In this document: piece by piece, positions 21,654 to 37,580 of the stretch
Numbering within the stretch: the first letter of the stretch is position 1
Layout of the letters: every line of letters begins with the position of its first letter
NCBI RefSeq assembly: GCF_003018235.1
Contig: NZ_CP027439.1
DNA length: 64,000 bases
Source of the DNA: Escherichia coli
Lineage (GTDB): Bacteria; Pseudomonadota; Gammaproteobacteria; Enterobacterales; Enterobacteriaceae
Reading direction: 5' to 3' (one strand)
The notes under the pieces: generated by a model
Seen by the model: the letters and a program-made list of their open reading frames with translations, nothing else
Database searches by the model: none
Told to the model about the DNA's origin: nothing
Translations under genes and position numbers: made by a program

Positions 21654-21941
21654 TCACCTCATTCGTTCGCTGGCAAGATTATAAACATCACTACGTTCAC
21701 GTTTCCCTACAGCAACAACAGCGATAACTAATTGATCATCAATCACCTGATAAACCAGGCGGAAGCCAGACGCACGAAGTTTAATTTTGTAGCAATCCTT
21801 TATCCCACGCAGTTTTGCTGATGGGATATGTGGATTTTCACTGCACTTCTTTAGCTTTTTAGCAAACTGCTGCTGAATTGCCTTATCCAGTTTTTGCCAT
21901 TCTTTCAGTGCATCTTCCCTGAATCTGACTGTGTAAGTCAT
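21654..21941 (-). CDS. stbE: RelE/StbE-family mRNA interferase toxin
   Basis: 95 aa. ALKEWQKL...LRG.KDCYKIKLR.SG.RLVYQVID...VGKRERS.VY matches RelE closely. It overlaps the upstream antitoxin gene by 4 nt. Confidence 0.9.
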   Translation of the reverse strand: MTYTVRFREDALKEWQKLDKAIQQQFAKKLKKCSENPHIPSAKLRGIKDCYKIKLRASGFRLVYQVIDDQLVIAVVAVGKRERSDVYNLASERMR

Positions 21942-22189
21942 AGGTAGCTATCCAGATCTACATCGTGCAGCTTCTGGTTGCTGCGTTCGGCGACCAGATT
22001 AACCAGTTCCTGATCGTCTAGGGCATCGAGCATCTTTTCATACAGTTCTGCGGGGACACAGTAAAAGGCGGGCTGGTTACGGTTCAGAATCGCGACTGGG
22101 TAACCATCACCGGCACTGACTGTCGCCATCGGGTTTTTTTTCAGTTCGCTGACACTGGCGCTAGTGTCACTCAGAATAATGTGGGGCAT
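21938..22189 (-). CDS. stbD: Phd/YefM/StbD-family antitoxin
   Basis: 83 aa with a Phd-type N-terminus (SVSELKKNPMATV). It is translationally coupled to the toxin gene. Confidence 0.85.
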   Translation of the reverse strand: MPHIILSDTSASVSELKKNPMATVSAGDGYPVAILNRNQPAFYCVPAELYEKMLDALDDQELVNLVAERSNQKLHDVDLDSYL

Positions 22190-22271
22190 AGGGCACCTTT
22201 AGAGACTATTTAACAGGTCTTTATAGTGTTCTAAAAAAGACCTCTTAACAAGTCTTTTTGTCATTTTACTC

Positions 22272-22316
22272 AATGTGCCGTAAAGCCCCGCCCTTCAGGG
22301 CGAGGAGGATGTCAAA
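22272..22316 (+). repeat. 45-bp hairpin-containing repeat, copy E1
   Basis: AATGTGCCGTAAAGCCCCGCCCTTCAGGGCGAGGAGGATGTCAAA. The second copy is at 26028-26072. Confidence 0.7.
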
Positions 22317-22412
22317 TAATAGGACCCCGAAAGGATTAGTAATGTGGCGTCTTTGCTACACAGGTGCTTTTGTAATATGTTGTATAGCGTACTCACTACA
22401 CAGGAGATGTGT

Positions 22413-22952
22413 ATGGCATTGTCACAGATCAGCGTTCGTATTGATGATGAACTCAAACAACGCACGGATGAAAAAATGAAACTGCTGAGAACCAACCCCA
22501 CGCAGGCCATTACGTTGCTCTATCAGTATATTGCTGAAAATGGGAAACTTCCCTTTACTGTCAGCACCCAACTCTTCACTTCAGAGGATTACACCCAAAA
22601 ATTAATCACCACAGTCAGATCTATTTATGAATACTGGCGCGCGCTTTCTGAGACATCAGCAACAACCAGAACGAAAAGTGGAATGGCCTATTCAATGGCA
22701 ATGGCAGCACATGTTTCGAAGCTGCACAGCGATCTGATACACAACTGCGGCACCTTGAGTGGTGAAGAAGTTGCCTCATTAATGATTGTTATGGAGGACA
22801 TTCTTTCTACGCCGCCATCTTTTTATCGCGGAGAAGCGCCCGATCAGGTGTTTCAGGATAAATTAAACGCTGCTGACCAAACTATTCTGATGATTGAAAA
22901 ATGTCATGGTATGAATGTTCAACGCGGGGAAAATTTTTACGCTCTCAGATGA
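22413..22952 (+). CDS. RelB/DinJ-like ribbon-helix-helix protein with a ~120-aa C-terminal extension
   Basis: The N-terminus MALSQISVRIDDELKQRTDEKMKLLRTNPTQAITLLYQYIAENGKLPF is DinJ/RelB-like. CAGGAG lies 6 nt before ATG 22413. There is no adjacent toxin ORF. Confidence 0.6.
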   Translation: MALSQISVRIDDELKQRTDEKMKLLRTNPTQAITLLYQYIAENGKLPFTVSTQLFTSEDYTQKLITTVRSIYEYWRALSETSATTRTKSGMAYSMAMAAHVSKLHSDLIHNCGTLSGEEVASLMIVMEDILSTPPSFYRGEAPDQVFQDKLNAADQTILMIEKCHGMNVQRGENFYALR

Positions 22953-23085
22953 ATGCACTGAATATGCAACAGCCCGTAAGGGTTTTTTTTGTGTACGCAG
23001 GACAGTTAATCCTAGTGTCCAGTGTGGAGCGGAAGTTACGTAACATTTGACGTAAGTATTTTTGGGATACTTATGAACTGAAATA

Positions 23086-23105
23086 AGATTTCGCATGCGA
23101 AATCT
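23086..23105. promoter_or_regulatory. Candidate parS/operator palindrome P1
   Basis: AGATTTCGCATGCGAAATCT, a perfect 20-bp palindrome. Confidence 0.6.
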
Positions 23106-23304
23106 ATTGCGTATCATTATTGATACTCTATGATTTCTCTGTATACTGTTCATATTGTCATGAACGTATGGCAACAAACGCAGTAGTAGATAGCTGCTTC
23201 TGCATCTTGGCGCAACGCCTGACTCACAGGAGTGTGTATGAAATACCGCAATGAATTCATATCATTACAGCAATACTTTTTCAATCCGCGCCGCCCCCTC
23301 TCAA

Positions 23305-23324
23305 ACATTTCGCATGCGAAATCT
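23305..23324. promoter_or_regulatory. Candidate parS/operator palindrome P2
   Basis: ACATTTCGCATGCGAAATCT (16-bp perfect core), 14 bp upstream of the parA start. Confidence 0.6.
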
Positions 23325-23337
23325 TAAGGACTGTTAC

Positions 23338-24204
23338 ATGACACTGAAAATTGGACCTATCGGAAAATTAATCGTTATATGTAGCCAGAAGGGCGGAATC
23401 GTAAAATCGCAGTCATCCAGCGAAATAGCATATGATCTTCGAGAATCAGGTTTTCGTGTGCTTGAAATTGATATGGACTGGACTACTGGTCTGACAGAGA
23501 GAGCTTTCCCCGATAGCTTACCCTATGAGATAGAGCGCGAACCTTTAAGTAACAGTTTTACACCCGGCGAAGCGAATACATATCAGCTTTTCTTCCCGGA
23601 CACTGAAGTTCGACCGATTGAGCTTCCTGGCGGGCGTTTTTTTATTGGCGCTACCAGTGAGCTTAATGAAATTAACTACCGCAACAGCGACTGTATGTTC
23701 GACTTCAGAGACCGTATTGAAGAACTGAAGAAACAGTTTGATTTTATTATTGCTGATTCAGCGCCATCATATTCAAACGTTATGATCGCCGCACATATGT
23801 CAGCTGACTATCTTCTGATCCCTACTCTGTTGGAGAAGCAGGCCCGAAATGCAGTTGGTAAACAGCTTACTTACATGCAAAAAATAAAACGGAACTATAA
23901 TCCATCGTTGCAGTTTATGGGCACTTATGTGACCCAAACACCGGTAAAAAATTATAAAAAGCCGCTTAAAGAAGGGTATTTGGGACCTATTGATACACTG
24001 AATCTGAATCTACTCATTGAGATCCTTCAGGGAAAAGGATATTCCGAAGAGTACATTCTTGCCTATATATCATTTGTACCTGCTGCTGCCAAAGAAGCGA
24101 TAGAACTTGGCCTCTCATTTGATGAATATGATCCTAAGTGTCTTCCTGCAATTCAGTATAAAGAGCTTACCCAGAAAATTATTCAGATCGCAGGAGATAA
24201 ATAA
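23338..24204 (+). CDS. parA: ParA/SopA-type partition ATPase
   Basis: Deviant Walker A motif SQKGGIVKSQSS and Walker B motif FIIADSAP. AAGGA lies upstream of ATG 23338. The longer ORF from 23251 would read through palindrome P2. Confidence 0.85.
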   Translation: MTLKIGPIGKLIVICSQKGGIVKSQSSSEIAYDLRESGFRVLEIDMDWTTGLTERAFPDSLPYEIEREPLSNSFTPGEANTYQLFFPDTEVRPIELPGGRFFIGATSELNEINYRNSDCMFDFRDRIEELKKQFDFIIADSAPSYSNVMIAAHMSADYLLIPTLLEKQARNAVGKQLTYMQKIKRNYNPSLQFMGTYVTQTPVKNYKKPLKEGYLGPIDTLNLNLLIEILQGKGYSEEYILAYISFVPAAAKEAIELGLSFDEYDPKCLPAIQYKELTQKIIQIAGDK

Positions 24205-25235
24205 TGGCCAAGAAACCGTTTATGAAACGACTCAAGGCGCAGCAGGAAATGAAAAAAAACTCTGCTGTTGTCTCTGATATTGAACAAGTCATTGCAAATA
24301 AACAGCCAGATGAGAAGAGCCATGACGTATCTGCGCACCAGATTTTGACAGATATTTCCCGCCCGGTTCTTGAACCTGATGGACAGATAATCCGCGTCGA
24401 TATAAACCTGGTTTATGCTGAGGAACAAGTACGACCTGAAGAAGATTTCGATGAAGAGGTTATCGATGGTATGGCAGATACTTTCGAAACCATAGGGATG
24501 CTTACCCCGCCTCGTTGTTATCCCCGCGACAGACGTGGATACCAGATATGGTTAGGAGAAACACGAGTTCGTACTGCACGTAAACGTGGTGATACCCATA
24601 TTGATATTTATGTCGGTAAACCACCACGAGAAAGAAAAGAACGAATCATTGGTCAGCTCATTGAAAACCTTCAGCAATCGGGTTTAAAACCATTAGCGAC
24701 TGCAAGATCGTTCTATGAACTTAAGCATCACTTCAATATGACGGGTGAACAGATCGCAAAAACGATGGGTAAACCAACCTCATTTGTCAGTAAACATCTT
24801 CGTCTCATTGATGCTCCAGAGAATGTTACCGCCCTTCTCCGGGATAAAGTGACATCCGATATTGATTTGGCTTACACACTAATACAGGTAAATGAAAGGG
24901 CTCCTGAAGAAGCCGAGAAGCTTATTGCAGCTGCGCGGGAATCTGGTATTTCACGCGCGCAAGTTAAAGCTGTTCTTGATGAGGTTAAGAACAAAAGCAA
25001 CCGTGAGATTTCGCATGCGAAATCTAAAGCTCAGAATAAAAGGCCATCCAAGTCTCTTAATAACAATTCAGATGTAAAAAGCTGGCAGGTAGTTGTCGAG
25101 ATTGACGGTCAGCAGGGAGTAATAATGACCGACCGTGCGCCAGAGGAAGATGGCTATGTGTGGGTTAAATTAGATATTGGTGAAATATCCGTCGAGGCTT
25201 CAGAGGTTCGTGTCAAGGGAATGCGGTCTTTGTGA
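24204..25235 (+). CDS. parB: ParB-family partition/centromere-binding protein
   Basis: It is coupled to parA (TAATG). It carries a ParB N-terminal-type box (IWLGETRVRTARKRG) followed by an HTH-like region (GEQIAKTMGKPTSFVSKHLRL). Confidence 0.8.
   Translation: MAKKPFMKRLKAQQEMKKNSAVVSDIEQVIANKQPDEKSHDVSAHQILTDISRPVLEPDGQIIRVDINLVYAEEQVRPEEDFDEEVIDGMADTFETIGMLTPPRCYPRDRRGYQIWLGETRVRTARKRGDTHIDIYVGKPPRERKERIIGQLIENLQQSGLKPLATARSFYELKHHFNMTGEQIAKTMGKPTSFVSKHLRLIDAPENVTALLRDKVTSDIDLAYTLIQVNERAPEEAEKLIAAARESGISRAQVKAVLDEVKNKSNREISHAKSKAQNKRPSKSLNNNSDVKSWQVVVEIDGQQGVIMTDRAPEEDGYVWVKLDIGEISVEASEVRVKGMRSL
25006..25025. promoter_or_regulatory. Candidate parS palindrome P3, inside the parB coding sequence
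   Basis: AGATTTCGCATGCGAAATCT, encoding EISHAKS. Confidence 0.6.
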
Positions 25236-25672
25236 TGAAATCAACCCCATTCACTGAAATGGCCACTGCATTCCGTGGCCAAATTGTCCGTCTCTGGGCG
25301 CTTCGATATCCCGGAACTCAATCCGAAGCAGCTGCTGCATTAACAGAAGCTGCTATCAATCTTGGATACGTTACAAGAAGTAGACCTGTGCCTGGAGCAG
25401 CCTTATTATCATGGTTATCGAATCCCGCTGAAACGCCTCTGTGGGCGGCTCAGACCGCATTAACGATGATGCTCAAGATTGGCTGGAAGCCAGAGAGTAA
25501 TCAAGAATGGTGTGGGATGTCGGCACTGATATTCAGAGCTAATCGTAAACTTTCACTTGAACTGTTAGTTGCATCCTTGCCTGATAGTATAGACAGGCAA
25601 ACTGCTACAGGATGGTTTGTGGCTGCAATAGAAGAAGATGCCCACTACCGTTATAACAGGAAATTCAGATGA
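25232..25672 (+). CDS. Hypothetical protein (146 aa), translationally coupled to parB
   Basis: GTGATG overlap with the parB stop. No motif was recognised. Confidence 0.55.
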   Translation: MMKSTPFTEMATAFRGQIVRLWALRYPGTQSEAAAALTEAAINLGYVTRSRPVPGAALLSWLSNPAETPLWAAQTALTMMLKIGWKPESNQEWCGMSALIFRANRKLSLELLVASLPDSIDRQTATGWFVAAIEEDAHYRYNRKFR

Positions 25673-25992
25673 CCTTTCAGGAGCTTGATGCTTGTATTGC
25701 TGGCTCTGGTAGGCGTTCTATCGCTTCAGCGTTAATCGCTTTTATTCTCGATGCGTTTGATGATGGACAGGACGGAGTTGATCTTGATTCTTTCCAGAGC
25801 CAGATGCGCTTCGTTCGCAACAATGTAACAACCGTAGCCAACTATCTGCAGCGACAGGGGGTTCTCCATATACTGTATTACCGTGATGGTGCCGCAGAAC
25901 GTCAGTATGAGACCGTTAATAATTATGGACGATGGGCAAAACAGCACTATCGTCCTTCTCAGGCACTTATTCAGTTGCACCGCCGTAATTAA
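25669..25992 (+). CDS. Hypothetical protein (107 aa)
   Basis: ATGA overlap with the previous ORF. No motif was recognised. Confidence 0.55.
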   Translation: MTFQELDACIAGSGRRSIASALIAFILDAFDDGQDGVDLDSFQSQMRFVRNNVTTVANYLQRQGVLHILYYRDGAAERQYETVNNYGRWAKQHYRPSQALIQLHRRN

Positions 25993-25993
25993 A

Positions 25994-26021
25994 GCAAAGA
26001 TTTCGCATGCGAAATCTTTGC
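25994..26021. promoter_or_regulatory. Candidate parS palindrome P4 (extended 28-bp perfect palindrome)
   Basis: GCAAAGATTTCGCATGCGAAATCTTTGC, immediately after the operon. Confidence 0.6.
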
Positions 26022-26027
26022 TTACCT

Positions 26028-26072
26028 AATGTGCCATAAAGCCCCGTCCTTCTGGACGGGGAGGATGTCAAA
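26028..26072 (+). repeat. 45-bp hairpin-containing repeat, copy E2
   Basis: AATGTGCCATAAAGCCCCGTCCTTCTGGACGGGGAGGATGTCAAA. Confidence 0.7.
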
Positions 26073-35621: not shown

Positions 35622-37580
35622 ATGTCAGTTACAGAGTCTAAGACAAAAACGGAGCGTAAATCCAGCCGTAAACCTGCAAAAACGCAGGAAACAGTCCTGT
35701 CTGCCCTGCTGGCGCAGACGGAGGAAGTGAGCGTGCCGCTGGCCTCACTGATTAAATCACCGCTGAATGTGCGCACGGTGCCGTATTCTGCGGAGTCCGT
35801 CAGCGAACTGGCGGACTCCATTAAAGGCGTCGGCCTGTTACAGAATCTGGTTGTTCATGCCCTGCCAGGTGACCGTTACGGTGTCGCCGCAGGTGGTCGC
35901 CGACTGGCTGCACTCAACATGCTGGCAGAGCGTGGCATCATTCCGGCTGACTGGCCTGTCCGTGTGAAGGTCATTCCGCAGGAGCTGGCGACGGCGGCAT
36001 CAATGACTGAAAACGGTCATCGTCGGGATATGCACCCTGCTGAACAGATTGCCGGATTCCGCGCAATGGCGCAGGAAGGCAAAACACCTGCACAAATCGG
36101 TGATTTGCTGGGCTATTCACCCCGCCATGTCCAGCGAATGCTGAAACTGGCAGATCTTGCGCCTGTCATCCTCGATGCGCTGGCAGAAGACCGCATCACC
36201 ACCGAACACTGTCAGGCGCTGGCACTGGAGAACGACACCGCGCGTCAGGTGCAGGTGTTTGAAGCCGCCTGCCAGTCAGGATGGGGTGGAAAACCGGAAG
36301 TGCAGACCATTCGTCGTCTGGTGACCGAAAGTGAAGTGGCGGTGGCGGGGAACAGTAAATTCCGCTTCGTGGGGGCTGATGCCTTCTCGCCAGATGAACT
36401 GCGCACCGATTTGTTCAGCGACGACGAGGGTGGCTATGTGGACTGTGTTGCGCTCGATGTCGCCCTGCTGGAAAAACTCCAGGCTGTCGCAGAGTTCCTT
36501 CGGGAAGCCGAAGGCTGGGAATGGTGCGCCGGACGTATGGAGCCTGTTGGTGAGTGCCGTGAGGATGCCGGAACATACCGCTGTCTGCCGGAGCCGGAAG
36601 CGGTGCTGACGGAGGCGGAAGAAGAACGCCTGAACGAACTGATGGCACGTTACGACGCGCCGGAAAACCAGAGTGAGGAATCCGACCTGCTGGAAGCCGA
36701 AATGAAGCTGATGCGCTGCATGGCGAAGGTCAGGGCGTGGACGCCGGAGATGCGTGCCGGAAGTGGCGTGGTGGTGTCCTGGCGTTATGGCAACGTGTGT
36801 GTCCAGCGTGGTGTGCAGTTGCGCAGTGAGGATGATGTGGCTGATAACGATTACCGCACGGAACAGGTGCAGGAGAAAGCCTCAGTGGAGGAAATCAGTC
36901 TGCCGCTGCTGACGAAAATGTCCTCAGAGCGCACGCTGGCAGTCCAGGCGGCACTGATGCAGCAATCAGACAAATCCCTGGCACTTCTGGCATGGACACT
37001 CTGTCTGAATGTATTTGGCAGTGGAGCGTACAGCAATCCCGCCAGAATCCGCCTGGAATGTGAGCATTATTCGCTGACCAGCGATGCGCCGTCAGGGAAG
37101 GAAGGTGCCGCATTCATGGCGATGATGGCAGAAAAAGCCCGTCTTGCCGCCCTGCTGCCGGATGGATGGGCACGGGATATGACGACGTTCCTGTCACTCA
37201 GTCAGGAGGTGCTGTTATCACTGCTCAGTTTCTGCACCGCGTGCAGTATCCACGGTGTCCAGACCCGTGAGTATGGTCACACGTCACGCAGTCCGCTGGA
37301 TTCGCTGGAAAGCGCCATCGGCTTTCACATGCGCGACTGGTGGCAGCCGACAAAAGCAAACTTCTTCGGACACCTGAAAAAGCCGCAGATTATCGCAGCC
37401 CTGAATGAGGCAGGACTGTCCGGTGCTGCACGGGACGCGGAGAAGATGAAGAAAGGCGATGCGGCTGAACATGCAGAGTTCCACATGAAAGACAACCGCT
37501 GGGTGCCTGGCTGGATGTGTGCACCACGCCCACAGACGGATGCCACTGAACGCACCGATAACCTGGCTGATGCCGCCTGA
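35622..37580 (+). CDS. ParB/Srx-domain protein of the leading region (652 aa)
   Basis: N-terminal ParB-type box LLQNLVVHALPGDRYGVAAGGRRLAAL. It holds the conserved position upstream of psiB in F-like plasmids. Confidence 0.85.
   Translation: MSVTESKTKTERKSSRKPAKTQETVLSALLAQTEEVSVPLASLIKSPLNVRTVPYSAESVSELADSIKGVGLLQNLVVHALPGDRYGVAAGGRRLAALNMLAERGIIPADWPVRVKVIPQELATAASMTENGHRRDMHPAEQIAGFRAMAQEGKTPAQIGDLLGYSPRHVQRMLKLADLAPVILDALAEDRITTEHCQALALENDTARQVQVFEAACQSGWGGKPEVQTIRRLVTESEVAVAGNSKFRFVGADAFSPDELRTDLFSDDEGGYVDCVALDVALLEKLQAVAEFLREAEGWEWCAGRMEPVGECREDAGTYRCLPEPEAVLTEAEEERLNELMARYDAPENQSEESDLLEAEMKLMRCMAKVRAWTPEMRAGSGVVVSWRYGNVCVQRGVQLRSEDDVADNDYRTEQVQEKASVEEISLPLLTKMSSERTLAVQAALMQQSDKSLALLAWTLCLNVFGSGAYSNPARIRLECEHYSLTSDAPSGKEGAAFMAMMAEKARLAALLPDGWARDMTTFLSLSQEVLLSLLSFCTACSIHGVQTREYGHTSRSPLDSLESAIGFHMRDWWQPTKANFFGHLKKPQIIAALNEAGLSGAARDAEKMKKGDAAEHAEFHMKDNRWVPGWMCAPRPQTDATERTDNLADAA

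Follow-up and report, generated by a model that had tools for sequence, protein, structure and literature searches.

Organization of the par operon

The DNA analysed here is a 64-kb stretch of Escherichia coli contig NZ_CP027439.1 (hereafter the window, to which all coordinates refer unless another contig is named), and our subject is a partition operon in it, parA-parB-orf146-orf107, together with four copies of a palindrome, P1 to P4, that lie around and inside this operon. The four plus-strand genes are tightly packed, and neighbours overlap by 1 or 4 nt. The first gene, parA (23338..24204), encodes a partition ATPase of the Walker type (288 aa; KGGIVKS; Walker A box, residues 17-23) with Pfam matches to AAA_31, MipZ and CbiA. 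Its nearest PDB matches were Soj, delta and small ParA proteins, and the alignments to these solved relatives began at residue 8-12, so ParA has no N-terminal helix-turn-helix (HTH) domain. Identity to the ParA proteins of IncC plasmids and of NAH7 was 23-24%.

The stop codon of parA overlaps the start codon of parB (24204..25235), which follows directly and encodes a 343-aa KorB-like ParB with ParB_N, HTH/KorB, linker and KorB_C-like domains. Pfam analysis gave matches to KorB (PF08535; E 1.5e-16, 60.6 bits with a cut-off of 22.3), HTH_ParB (E 9.8e-10), ParB_N (27.9 bits, cut-off 26.3) and KorB_C, the last with 25.0 bits, exactly at its cut-off of 25; the C-terminus was 47% identical to that of IncC ParB over just 36 residues. 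The linker (about residues 262-293) is variable. Among solved structures, ParB matched the clamp structures, dependent on cytidine triphosphate (CTP), of Spo0J, Noc, ParB and KorB, and the match to Spo0J 6sdk (E 3.8e-17) was stronger than the similarity to KorB (E 1.5e-7), whose structures 8qa8 and 1r71 were both matched. The motif G118-E-T-R-V-R-T-A125 of ParB aligned to GERRFRAA of 6sdk, and its G, E, R121, R123 and A125 were invariant among five homologues. The first-pass annotation of this DNA, made from the letters alone, had called parA and parB correctly, and the Pfam domains and PDB alignments agree with its description of a ParA without an N-terminal HTH next to a ParB that has one.

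The two genes after parB (25235-25672 and 25669-25992) are translationally coupled. orf146 (25235..25672, 145 aa from the ATG at 25235) starts within the parB stop codon and encodes a conserved hypothetical protein that is predicted to be all-helical. It had no Pfam, NCBIfam or PDB match, PDB profile search included, and it showed no similarity to IncC 053 in a profile comparison or to NAH7 ParC. Its homologues were found only in an Enterobacterales clade and were absent in Morganella, and its single-sequence AlphaFold2 model was poor, with a predicted local distance difference test score (pLDDT) of 63. orf107 (25669..25992) encodes a small winged-helix protein. Its AlphaFold2 model reached a pLDDT of 94.6, and the top Foldseek PDB matches were all MarR, ArsR or TFE winged helices (template modelling score about 0.5-0.6, E 0.01-0.1). 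Orf107 is probably an accessory DNA-binding protein, and its gene takes the place in the operon that gene 053 has in IncC. A PDB profile search with it gave nothing significant and hhalign against 053-like proteins was not significant (E 0.023, probability 2%).

Four exact copies of one palindrome

A 16-base palindromic core, ATTTCGCATGCGAAAT, occurs in the window in four exact copies with 0 mismatches (starts 23088, 23307, 25008 and 26000), and all of them lie within 2.9 kb around and inside the partition operon. The mean number expected from shuffled sequence was 0.01, and 0 of 100 shuffles of the 64 kb reached 4 copies. The four copies around and inside parAB that the first-pass annotation had pointed out are thus real, and the search for the palindrome elsewhere that it had proposed turned up nothing more: there was no fifth copy in the window even when 2 mismatches were allowed, a looser 14-mer scan of the window with 3 mismatches gave extra matches at chance level only, and a complete plasmid of 60 kb whose module is 99.8% identical had none beyond the four. 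No other repeated motif fit to be parS was found in the locus.

The four palindromes, all putative ParB sites, are given without strand, like the other inverted repeats below. P1 (23086..23105) is a perfect 20-bp palindrome, AGATTTCGCATGCGAAATCT, which ends 233 nt before the start of parA (250 bp had been claimed), with the -35 of the best promoter 14 nt downstream of its edge. P2 (23307..23322) is a perfect palindrome over 16 bp. It had also been taken as a 20-mer, but 23305-23324 contains one non-complementary pair (AC...CT). The core of P2 ends 3 nt before the Shine-Dalgarno (SD) sequence AAGGA and 15 nt before the parA ATG (23338). P3 (25006..25025) is a perfect 20-bp palindrome within parB; the 20-bp extents given earlier for P1 and P3 therefore stood. 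Its 16-bp core forms parB codons 269-274 (I-S-H-A-K-S) in the linker, rich in indels, that joins the DNA-binding to the C-terminal domain, so the DNA constraint is cheap for the ParB protein. P4 (25992..26023) is a perfect 32-bp palindrome, AAGCAAAGATTTCGCATGCGAAATCTTTGCTT, rather than one of 28 bp, and it lies at the end of the operon, where it overlaps the final base of the orf107 stop codon. Its RNA would fold into a hairpin of 14 pairs, which no U tail follows.

Conservation of the palindromes and co-occurrence with ParB

The par module was 99.8% identical in three E. coli plasmids and about 88% identical in roughly 600 PLSDB plasmids, which were mostly large Klebsiella plasmids but also came from E. 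coli, Enterobacter, Citrobacter and Salmonella. The four-site layout (some 230 nt ahead of parA, at its ribosome-binding site, inside parB and after the last gene) was kept in every relative with a ParB 58-90% identical, and these relatives came from E. coli, Klebsiella, Kluyvera, Pantoea, Izhakiella, Mixta, Providencia and Morganella. Fourteen such operons aligned with MAFFT (3.35 kb) had a mean column conservation of 0.65, and the only invariant runs of at least 11 nt were P2 and P3, which indicates that selection acts on the palindrome DNA itself. P1 was the least conserved of the four sites: Klebsiella carried AATTCGCATGCGAATT, a symmetric double change, and a single mismatch was seen in L011, L021 and pLAO6. 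The extension of P4 past 20 bp was confined to this E. coli lineage, and in the other relatives the core was kept after the last gene with varying flanks. P3 was kept in Providencia and Morganella, where ParB is about 60% identical, and was absent from the more distant parB genes of Serratia and Alcaligenes.

Two Morganella-type loci (ParA 72% and ParB 60% identical) had neither orf146 nor orf107 by tblastn, and the same two loci kept 8-11 exact palindromes, the intragenic parB copy included. By this comparison the palindromes track ParAB and not the neighbouring genes.

As a separate observation, Morganella psychrotolerans contig L018 (140-13043) and a Serratia plasmid (L006, 1312-5926) carried 7-11 palindrome copies. 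Most of these copies were intergenic and upstream of small unannotated genes, a pattern like that of a KorB regulon; a Pfam scan of the small genes beside the extra Morganella sites gave no matches.

We then scanned with a ParB profile, using one genome per species, and obtained 45 loci, or 48 ParB-encoding loci together with plasmid loci. A palindrome of one family was present in 48 of the 48, and most of them had one copy just upstream of parA. The palindromes fell into four classes, TTCGCATGCGAA, TTCACATGTGAA, TTGCACATGTGCAA and TTACGCATGCGTAA, which were mutually exclusive and never occurred together in one locus. The first class (CGC) was found in Enterobacterales, Serratia, Alcaligenes, Halomonas and Vreelandella, and the second (CAC) in IncC plasmids, Vibrio, Shewanella, Marinomonas, Alcanivorax and Edwardsiella; TTGCACATGTGCAA belonged to Kistimonas and TTACGCATGCGTAA to Pseudohongiella. 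The distant CGC-class ParBs were 39% identical to CAC-class ParBs and 28% identical to the ParB studied here, so they are closer to the CAC class, which means that motif class does not simply follow overall relatedness. ParB residues that separate CGC from CAC were also looked for, and the few disjoint columns (e.g. 210 and 234, downstream of the HTH) were confounded by phylogeny.

In Edwardsiella anguillarum contig L051 (1971-2355), eight tandem copies of TTTCACATGTGAAA are spaced by exactly 48 bp, with a ninth copy 96 bp upstream, and the array lies about 4 kb upstream of an IncC-type parAB. It is a clustered centromere of the classical kind, made up of motifs of the same family.

These data bear on whether the repeats might act as RNA (hairpins, terminators or processing sites) or be a small mobile repeat unrelated to partition. 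Every copy can form a hairpin, the region around the 14-pair stem of P4 folds well (z = -6.7), and a pattern scan marked P1 as terminator-like on the minus strand. But it is the sequence itself that is invariant across lineages, whereas RNA stems would tolerate compensatory change, and the motif tracks ParB lineages in the 48 loci. Besides, P2, P3 and P4 have no U tail, P1 precedes the promoter, and an operon would be defeated by a terminator placed within parB or separating the leader from parA. We regard this explanation as extremely improbable.

Palindromes as putative parS sites of ParB

The closest precedent comes from IncC plasmids, whose purified ParB (with ParB and KorB domains) bound 22-bp repeats with the core TTTCACATGTGAAA in EMSA (electrophoretic mobility shift assay; PMC10954446). 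IncC plasmid R55 has 14 such sites, of which 4 are inside open reading frames (ORFs) and one is at PparA, and IncC ParA and ParB in trans stabilised a replicon carrying one site, while 053 was dispensable (PMC10954446). Judged by their letters, P1-P4 are a variant of this EMSA-proven parS that differs by one symmetric pair. Because the palindromes are non-random, conserved in sequence and position, co-occur with the ParB clade and have this IncC precedent, and because its Pfam domains put ParB in the right family, we consider that they in all likelihood serve a ParABS partition system of the KorB/IncC type as its parS/operator sites. The first-pass annotation had proposed a centromere/operator of parAB, and the conservation, the tracking of ParAB and the kinship to IncC parS make this very probable.

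In the mechanism that we infer, ParB dimers would recognise (A/G)TTTCGCATGCGAAA(T/C) via the HTH/KorB domain and, by analogy with other ParB-CTPases, would close into clamps loaded onto the adjacent DNA. The whole 2.9-kb operon would then become a partition complex, whichever of the sites serve as the centromere, and the HTH-less Walker ATPase ParA would position this complex on the nucleoid.

Several points weigh against this assignment. The IncC ParB failed to bind the bare 14-bp core without flanks (PMC10954446), and the flanks of P1-P4 differ from those of the IncC sites. In our ParB the first arginine of GERR is a threonine and ENLQR is replaced by ENLQQ, so CTP-dependent clamping is only assumed here. 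The searched literature gave no binding, stability or incompatibility experiment on this ParB or this site: the exact site sequence did not appear in it, a 12-mer was found only in an unrelated NRF1 context, and keyword searches (Klebsiella, IncFIB, IncR, parS) returned no description of the site. The F-type plasmid is larger than the window, so another partition system may lie outside the window. Finally, the operon encodes a second likely DNA-binding protein, the winged-helix Orf107, and a small third gene follows parB in nearly all distant loci; co-occurrence by itself therefore fails to point to ParB specifically.

The last point leads to the alternative that the palindromes are bound by Orf107, perhaps with Orf146, and that ParB reads some other sequence. 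Dimeric winged-helix repressors typically bind palindromes; the winged-helix model of Orf107 is a confident one, and in both loci whose third gene was scanned (IncC and Alcaligenes) Pfam identified a winged-helix HTH. Yet the Morganella relatives that lack orf146 and orf107 retain their 8-11 exact sites, and in IncC purified ParB alone binds the sister palindrome and 053 is not needed for stabilisation. The locus moreover offers a different inverted repeat (23111-23126) as a candidate Orf107 site and no other repeated parS-like motif for ParB, which leaves binding by Orf107 a quite improbable explanation of P1-P4.

Promoter, leader and possible autoregulation

If P1-P4 are ParB sites as we propose, the same ParB binding would probably autoregulate the operon, maybe jointly with the winged-helix Orf107, because P1 is close to the -35 on its upstream side and P2, in the leader, adjoins the ribosome-binding site of parA. 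The best-scoring promoter is a sigma-70-like TTGATA-16-TATACT (23120..23147, plus strand) with 10 of 12 matches, and both hexamers were conserved in the alignment of relatives, so that it is presumed, on its letters, to be the par operon promoter. P2 had been suggested as the autoregulatory operator, but this promoter lies about 160 nt upstream of it, which puts P2 in the transcribed leader, where it could act only as a roadblock or clamp-loading site. P1 is the better placed classical operator, since it is just upstream of the -35, like a promoter-proximal KorB operator.

A second inverted repeat, GTATCAttatTGATAC (23111..23126), is unlike P1-P4 and overlaps the -35 hexamer. It is unique in the window and conserved in the E. 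coli, Klebsiella and Pantoea relatives, and in Providencia it is a perfect 38-bp palindrome. It is absent from Serratia and from Morganella, which likewise lacks orf146 and orf107. By analogy, GTATCAttatTGATAC may be a candidate operator of another regulator, possibly Orf107, and this would parallel KorA/KorB or IncC 053.

The leader also contains a putative mini-ORF (23239..23328, plus strand) of 29 aa, MKYRNEFISLQQYFFNPRRPLSNISHAKS, with the SD AGGAG. P2 is contained in it, and its TAA stop codon falls within the SD of parA. The mini-ORF, 24-31 codons long, was open in 8 of 9 lineages with SD and ATG conserved, and its residues were poorly conserved except for the tail encoded by P2. P2 reads ISHAKS in the mini-ORF, in the same frame as P3 in parB.

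The position of P1 and P2 at the promoter and leader would also suit palindromes that are ParB operators only, acting in autoregulation and perhaps local silencing, with a single one of them or another sequence elsewhere as the centromere. According to Williams et al. 1998 (ref. 84 in PMC10954446), RK2 partition needs only OB3 among 12 KorB sites, so there is a precedent for one operator alone supporting partition, and the window falls short of the whole plasmid. The complete 60-kb relative has no fifth copy, however, and therefore any site that this ParB recognises must be among the four; no promoter that P3 or P4 might regulate is obvious, and still P3 does not vary; and in IncC a single such site together with ParAB stabilises a replicon. 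On balance we find it unlikely that the sites are operators alone, though an individual site among them may be no more than that.

Under the preferred parS/operator assignment, a compact RK2-like circuit is also conceivable, though unlikely. ParB clamps would load at the four sites, with Orf107 at 23111-23126 holding them at the promoter like KorA, and P3, together with P2 inside a translated mini-ORF, would be transcriptional roadblocks that set the ParA:ParB:accessory-protein ratio. The CGC and CAC classes would then mark orthogonal specificity (incompatibility) groups, determined by a small number of ParB positions that are not in the HTH, and the whole circuit would have gone unnoticed in hundreds of Klebsiella/Enterobacterales plasmids.

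Plasmid context of the operon

The window belongs to an F-type conjugative plasmid of mosaic make-up. Upstream of the par operon is a RelB-like gene, followed by an intrinsic-terminator-like hairpin with a T run (22971-22984) that closes it; downstream are convergent umuDC genes and a Rep3-type initiator. The RelB-like ORF (22344-22952) has a RelB/DinJ antitoxin domain in its N-terminal part only (residues 24-93 of 202), with no obvious toxin gene after it, and a separate relBE-like pair lies on the minus strand at 21654-22189. Between the par operon and the convergent umuC is a GC-rich hairpin (26042..26062), CCCCGTCC-TTCT-GGACGGGG, which is probably a terminator. This hairpin is included in a 51-nt direct repeat, 86% identical between its copies at 22266-22316 and 26022-26072, which brackets the RelB-like gene and the par operon and whose right copy begins at P4's edge. 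Some 70 other plasmids have short, unannotated matches of about 85% to the 51-nt repeat.

As for a second partition system in the window, only an orphan ParB-like protein of 652 aa (35622-37580) was found, which has ParB_N and HTH_ParB domains and is encoded in the F-type leading region beside psiA, with no ParA partner and no palindrome copy nearby. No second ParA was found among the 10 of 38 unassigned ORFs of at least 200 aa that were scanned with Pfam, and the remainder are in cargo and tra regions.

Comparison with known partition systems

Short HTH-less ParA with large HTH ParB had been described as an unusual pairing, but it is standard in IncC plasmids and NAH7. Chromosomal Soj/Spo0J and RK2 IncC2/KorB also combine a short HTH-less ParA with an HTH ParB. 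The earlier likening to N15 did not hold either. Several copies of a palindromic centromere site instead of one tandem cluster are indeed a feature shared with N15/SopAB, but the proteins here are not of the SopA/SopB type (NCBIfam SopA gave 24.8 bits with a cut-off of 725), and the sites lie within 2.9 kb and are not scattered over the genome. Several assignments were rejected. Membership in type Ia (SopAB or P1 ParAB) is contradicted by a ParA without an N-terminal extension and a ParB that matches chromosomal/KorB-type proteins and not SopB. In type Ib (ParF/ParG, pB171 par2, pSM19035) the binder is a ribbon-helix-helix protein of less than about 120 aa, and the candidate here is a 343-aa HTH ParB. 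As for a link to N15-like phage-plasmids, 16 IMG/VR stretches contained the 16-mer and had no ParA/ParB homologue in the DNA examined. One low-GC contig listed as viral, IMGVR_UViG_3300019754_000113 (L062 1778-5159 and L067 2695; 28% GC), had five copies of AATTTCGCATGCGAAATT at or between genes for an integrase, a DUF3560 protein, a DnaJ-like protein and a LexA-like repressor, with no ParA/ParB homologue in 18 kb; this set may be the regulon of an unseen ParB/KorB-like protein, or convergence.

The proper comparators are the IncC parS sites, RK2 OB and NAH7 parS, and besides these the chromosomal ParABS systems (Soj/Spo0J, parS TGTTTCACGTGAAACA) share several features. They gave the best solved-structure matches for ParB (6sdk) and for ParA, the half-site (A/G)TTTC(G/A)C resembles GTTTCAC, and several sites lie near parAB; in B. 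subtilis one parS is even said to lie inside spo0J, an observation attributed to Lin and Grossman in 1998. The differences are two extra central base pairs between the half-sites here (..CGC-AT-GCG..), a KorB_C-like C-terminal domain, and a plasmid-borne system with two extra operon genes.

NAH7 (IncP-9) also has a four-gene par operon (parA-parB-parR-parC) with a short ParA and an HTH ParB, and its sites are dispersed and intergenic. NAH7 ParB bound the 18-bp palindrome TTTCTCGCATGCGAGAAA by EMSA, and there are six parS sites (PMC12421886); this palindrome shares the inner 10 bp, TCGCATGCGA, with the sites here. However, its ParB is just 25% identical over 186 aa, its third gene encodes a KorA-domain protein, its ParC is unrelated to Orf146, and the NAH7 sites activate conjugation genes.

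RK2/RP4 (IncP-1) is similar in that the ParB here has Pfam matches to KorB and, at the cut-off, to KorB_C and matches the KorB structures 8qa8 and 1r71, and one protein would be both centromere binder and repressor. The class I OB sites of RK2 are palindromes adjoining a -35, as P1 is here. But OB is a 13-bp palindrome, TTTAGCSGCTAAA, with an odd centre, there are 12 OB operators, and KorB runs a plasmid-wide regulon, whereas here no copy was found outside 23086-26023, although rep, tra and the leading region are all part of the window. No homologue of korA was found for this system. KorB is described as a sliding clamp that depends on CTP and requires KorA or TrbA as its partner repressor (PMC11790492 and PMC13584720).

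The IncC system shares several features. Over the N-terminal and HTH regions its ParB is 30% identical, with a short match (36 residues) in the C-terminal barrel too; ParA is short and without an HTH; the 14-bp core has the same length and centre, TTTCACATGTGAAA there and TTTCGCATGCGAAA here, with a single symmetric base-pair difference; parA has one site just upstream of it (about 50 bp in the IncC locus); some sites are within ORFs; and a small winged-helix gene lies downstream of parB. Sites that bracket and enter genes, seen at first as an oddity, were thus already documented for IncC. Still, the core is CAC there and CGC here, the 14 sites are spread across the IncC backbone whereas the four here are confined to the operon, orf146 is an extra gene between parB and the winged-helix gene, a conserved site lies inside parB itself, and Orf107 is not detectably homologous to 053.

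Taken with its distribution, the module is probably a very widespread, uncharacterised KorB/IncC-type partition system with P1-P4 as its parS set. Knowing the site would provide a handle for predicting partition-mediated incompatibility, for curing or displacement vectors that titrate ParB, and for ParB/parS labelling tools orthogonal to existing ones, and the CGC and CAC classes, with ParBs 28-39% identical, are a natural system for mapping ParB specificity determinants. The mechanism is not new, and the system broadens the picture known from IncC and KorB, in which several dispersed parS sites also serve as operators.

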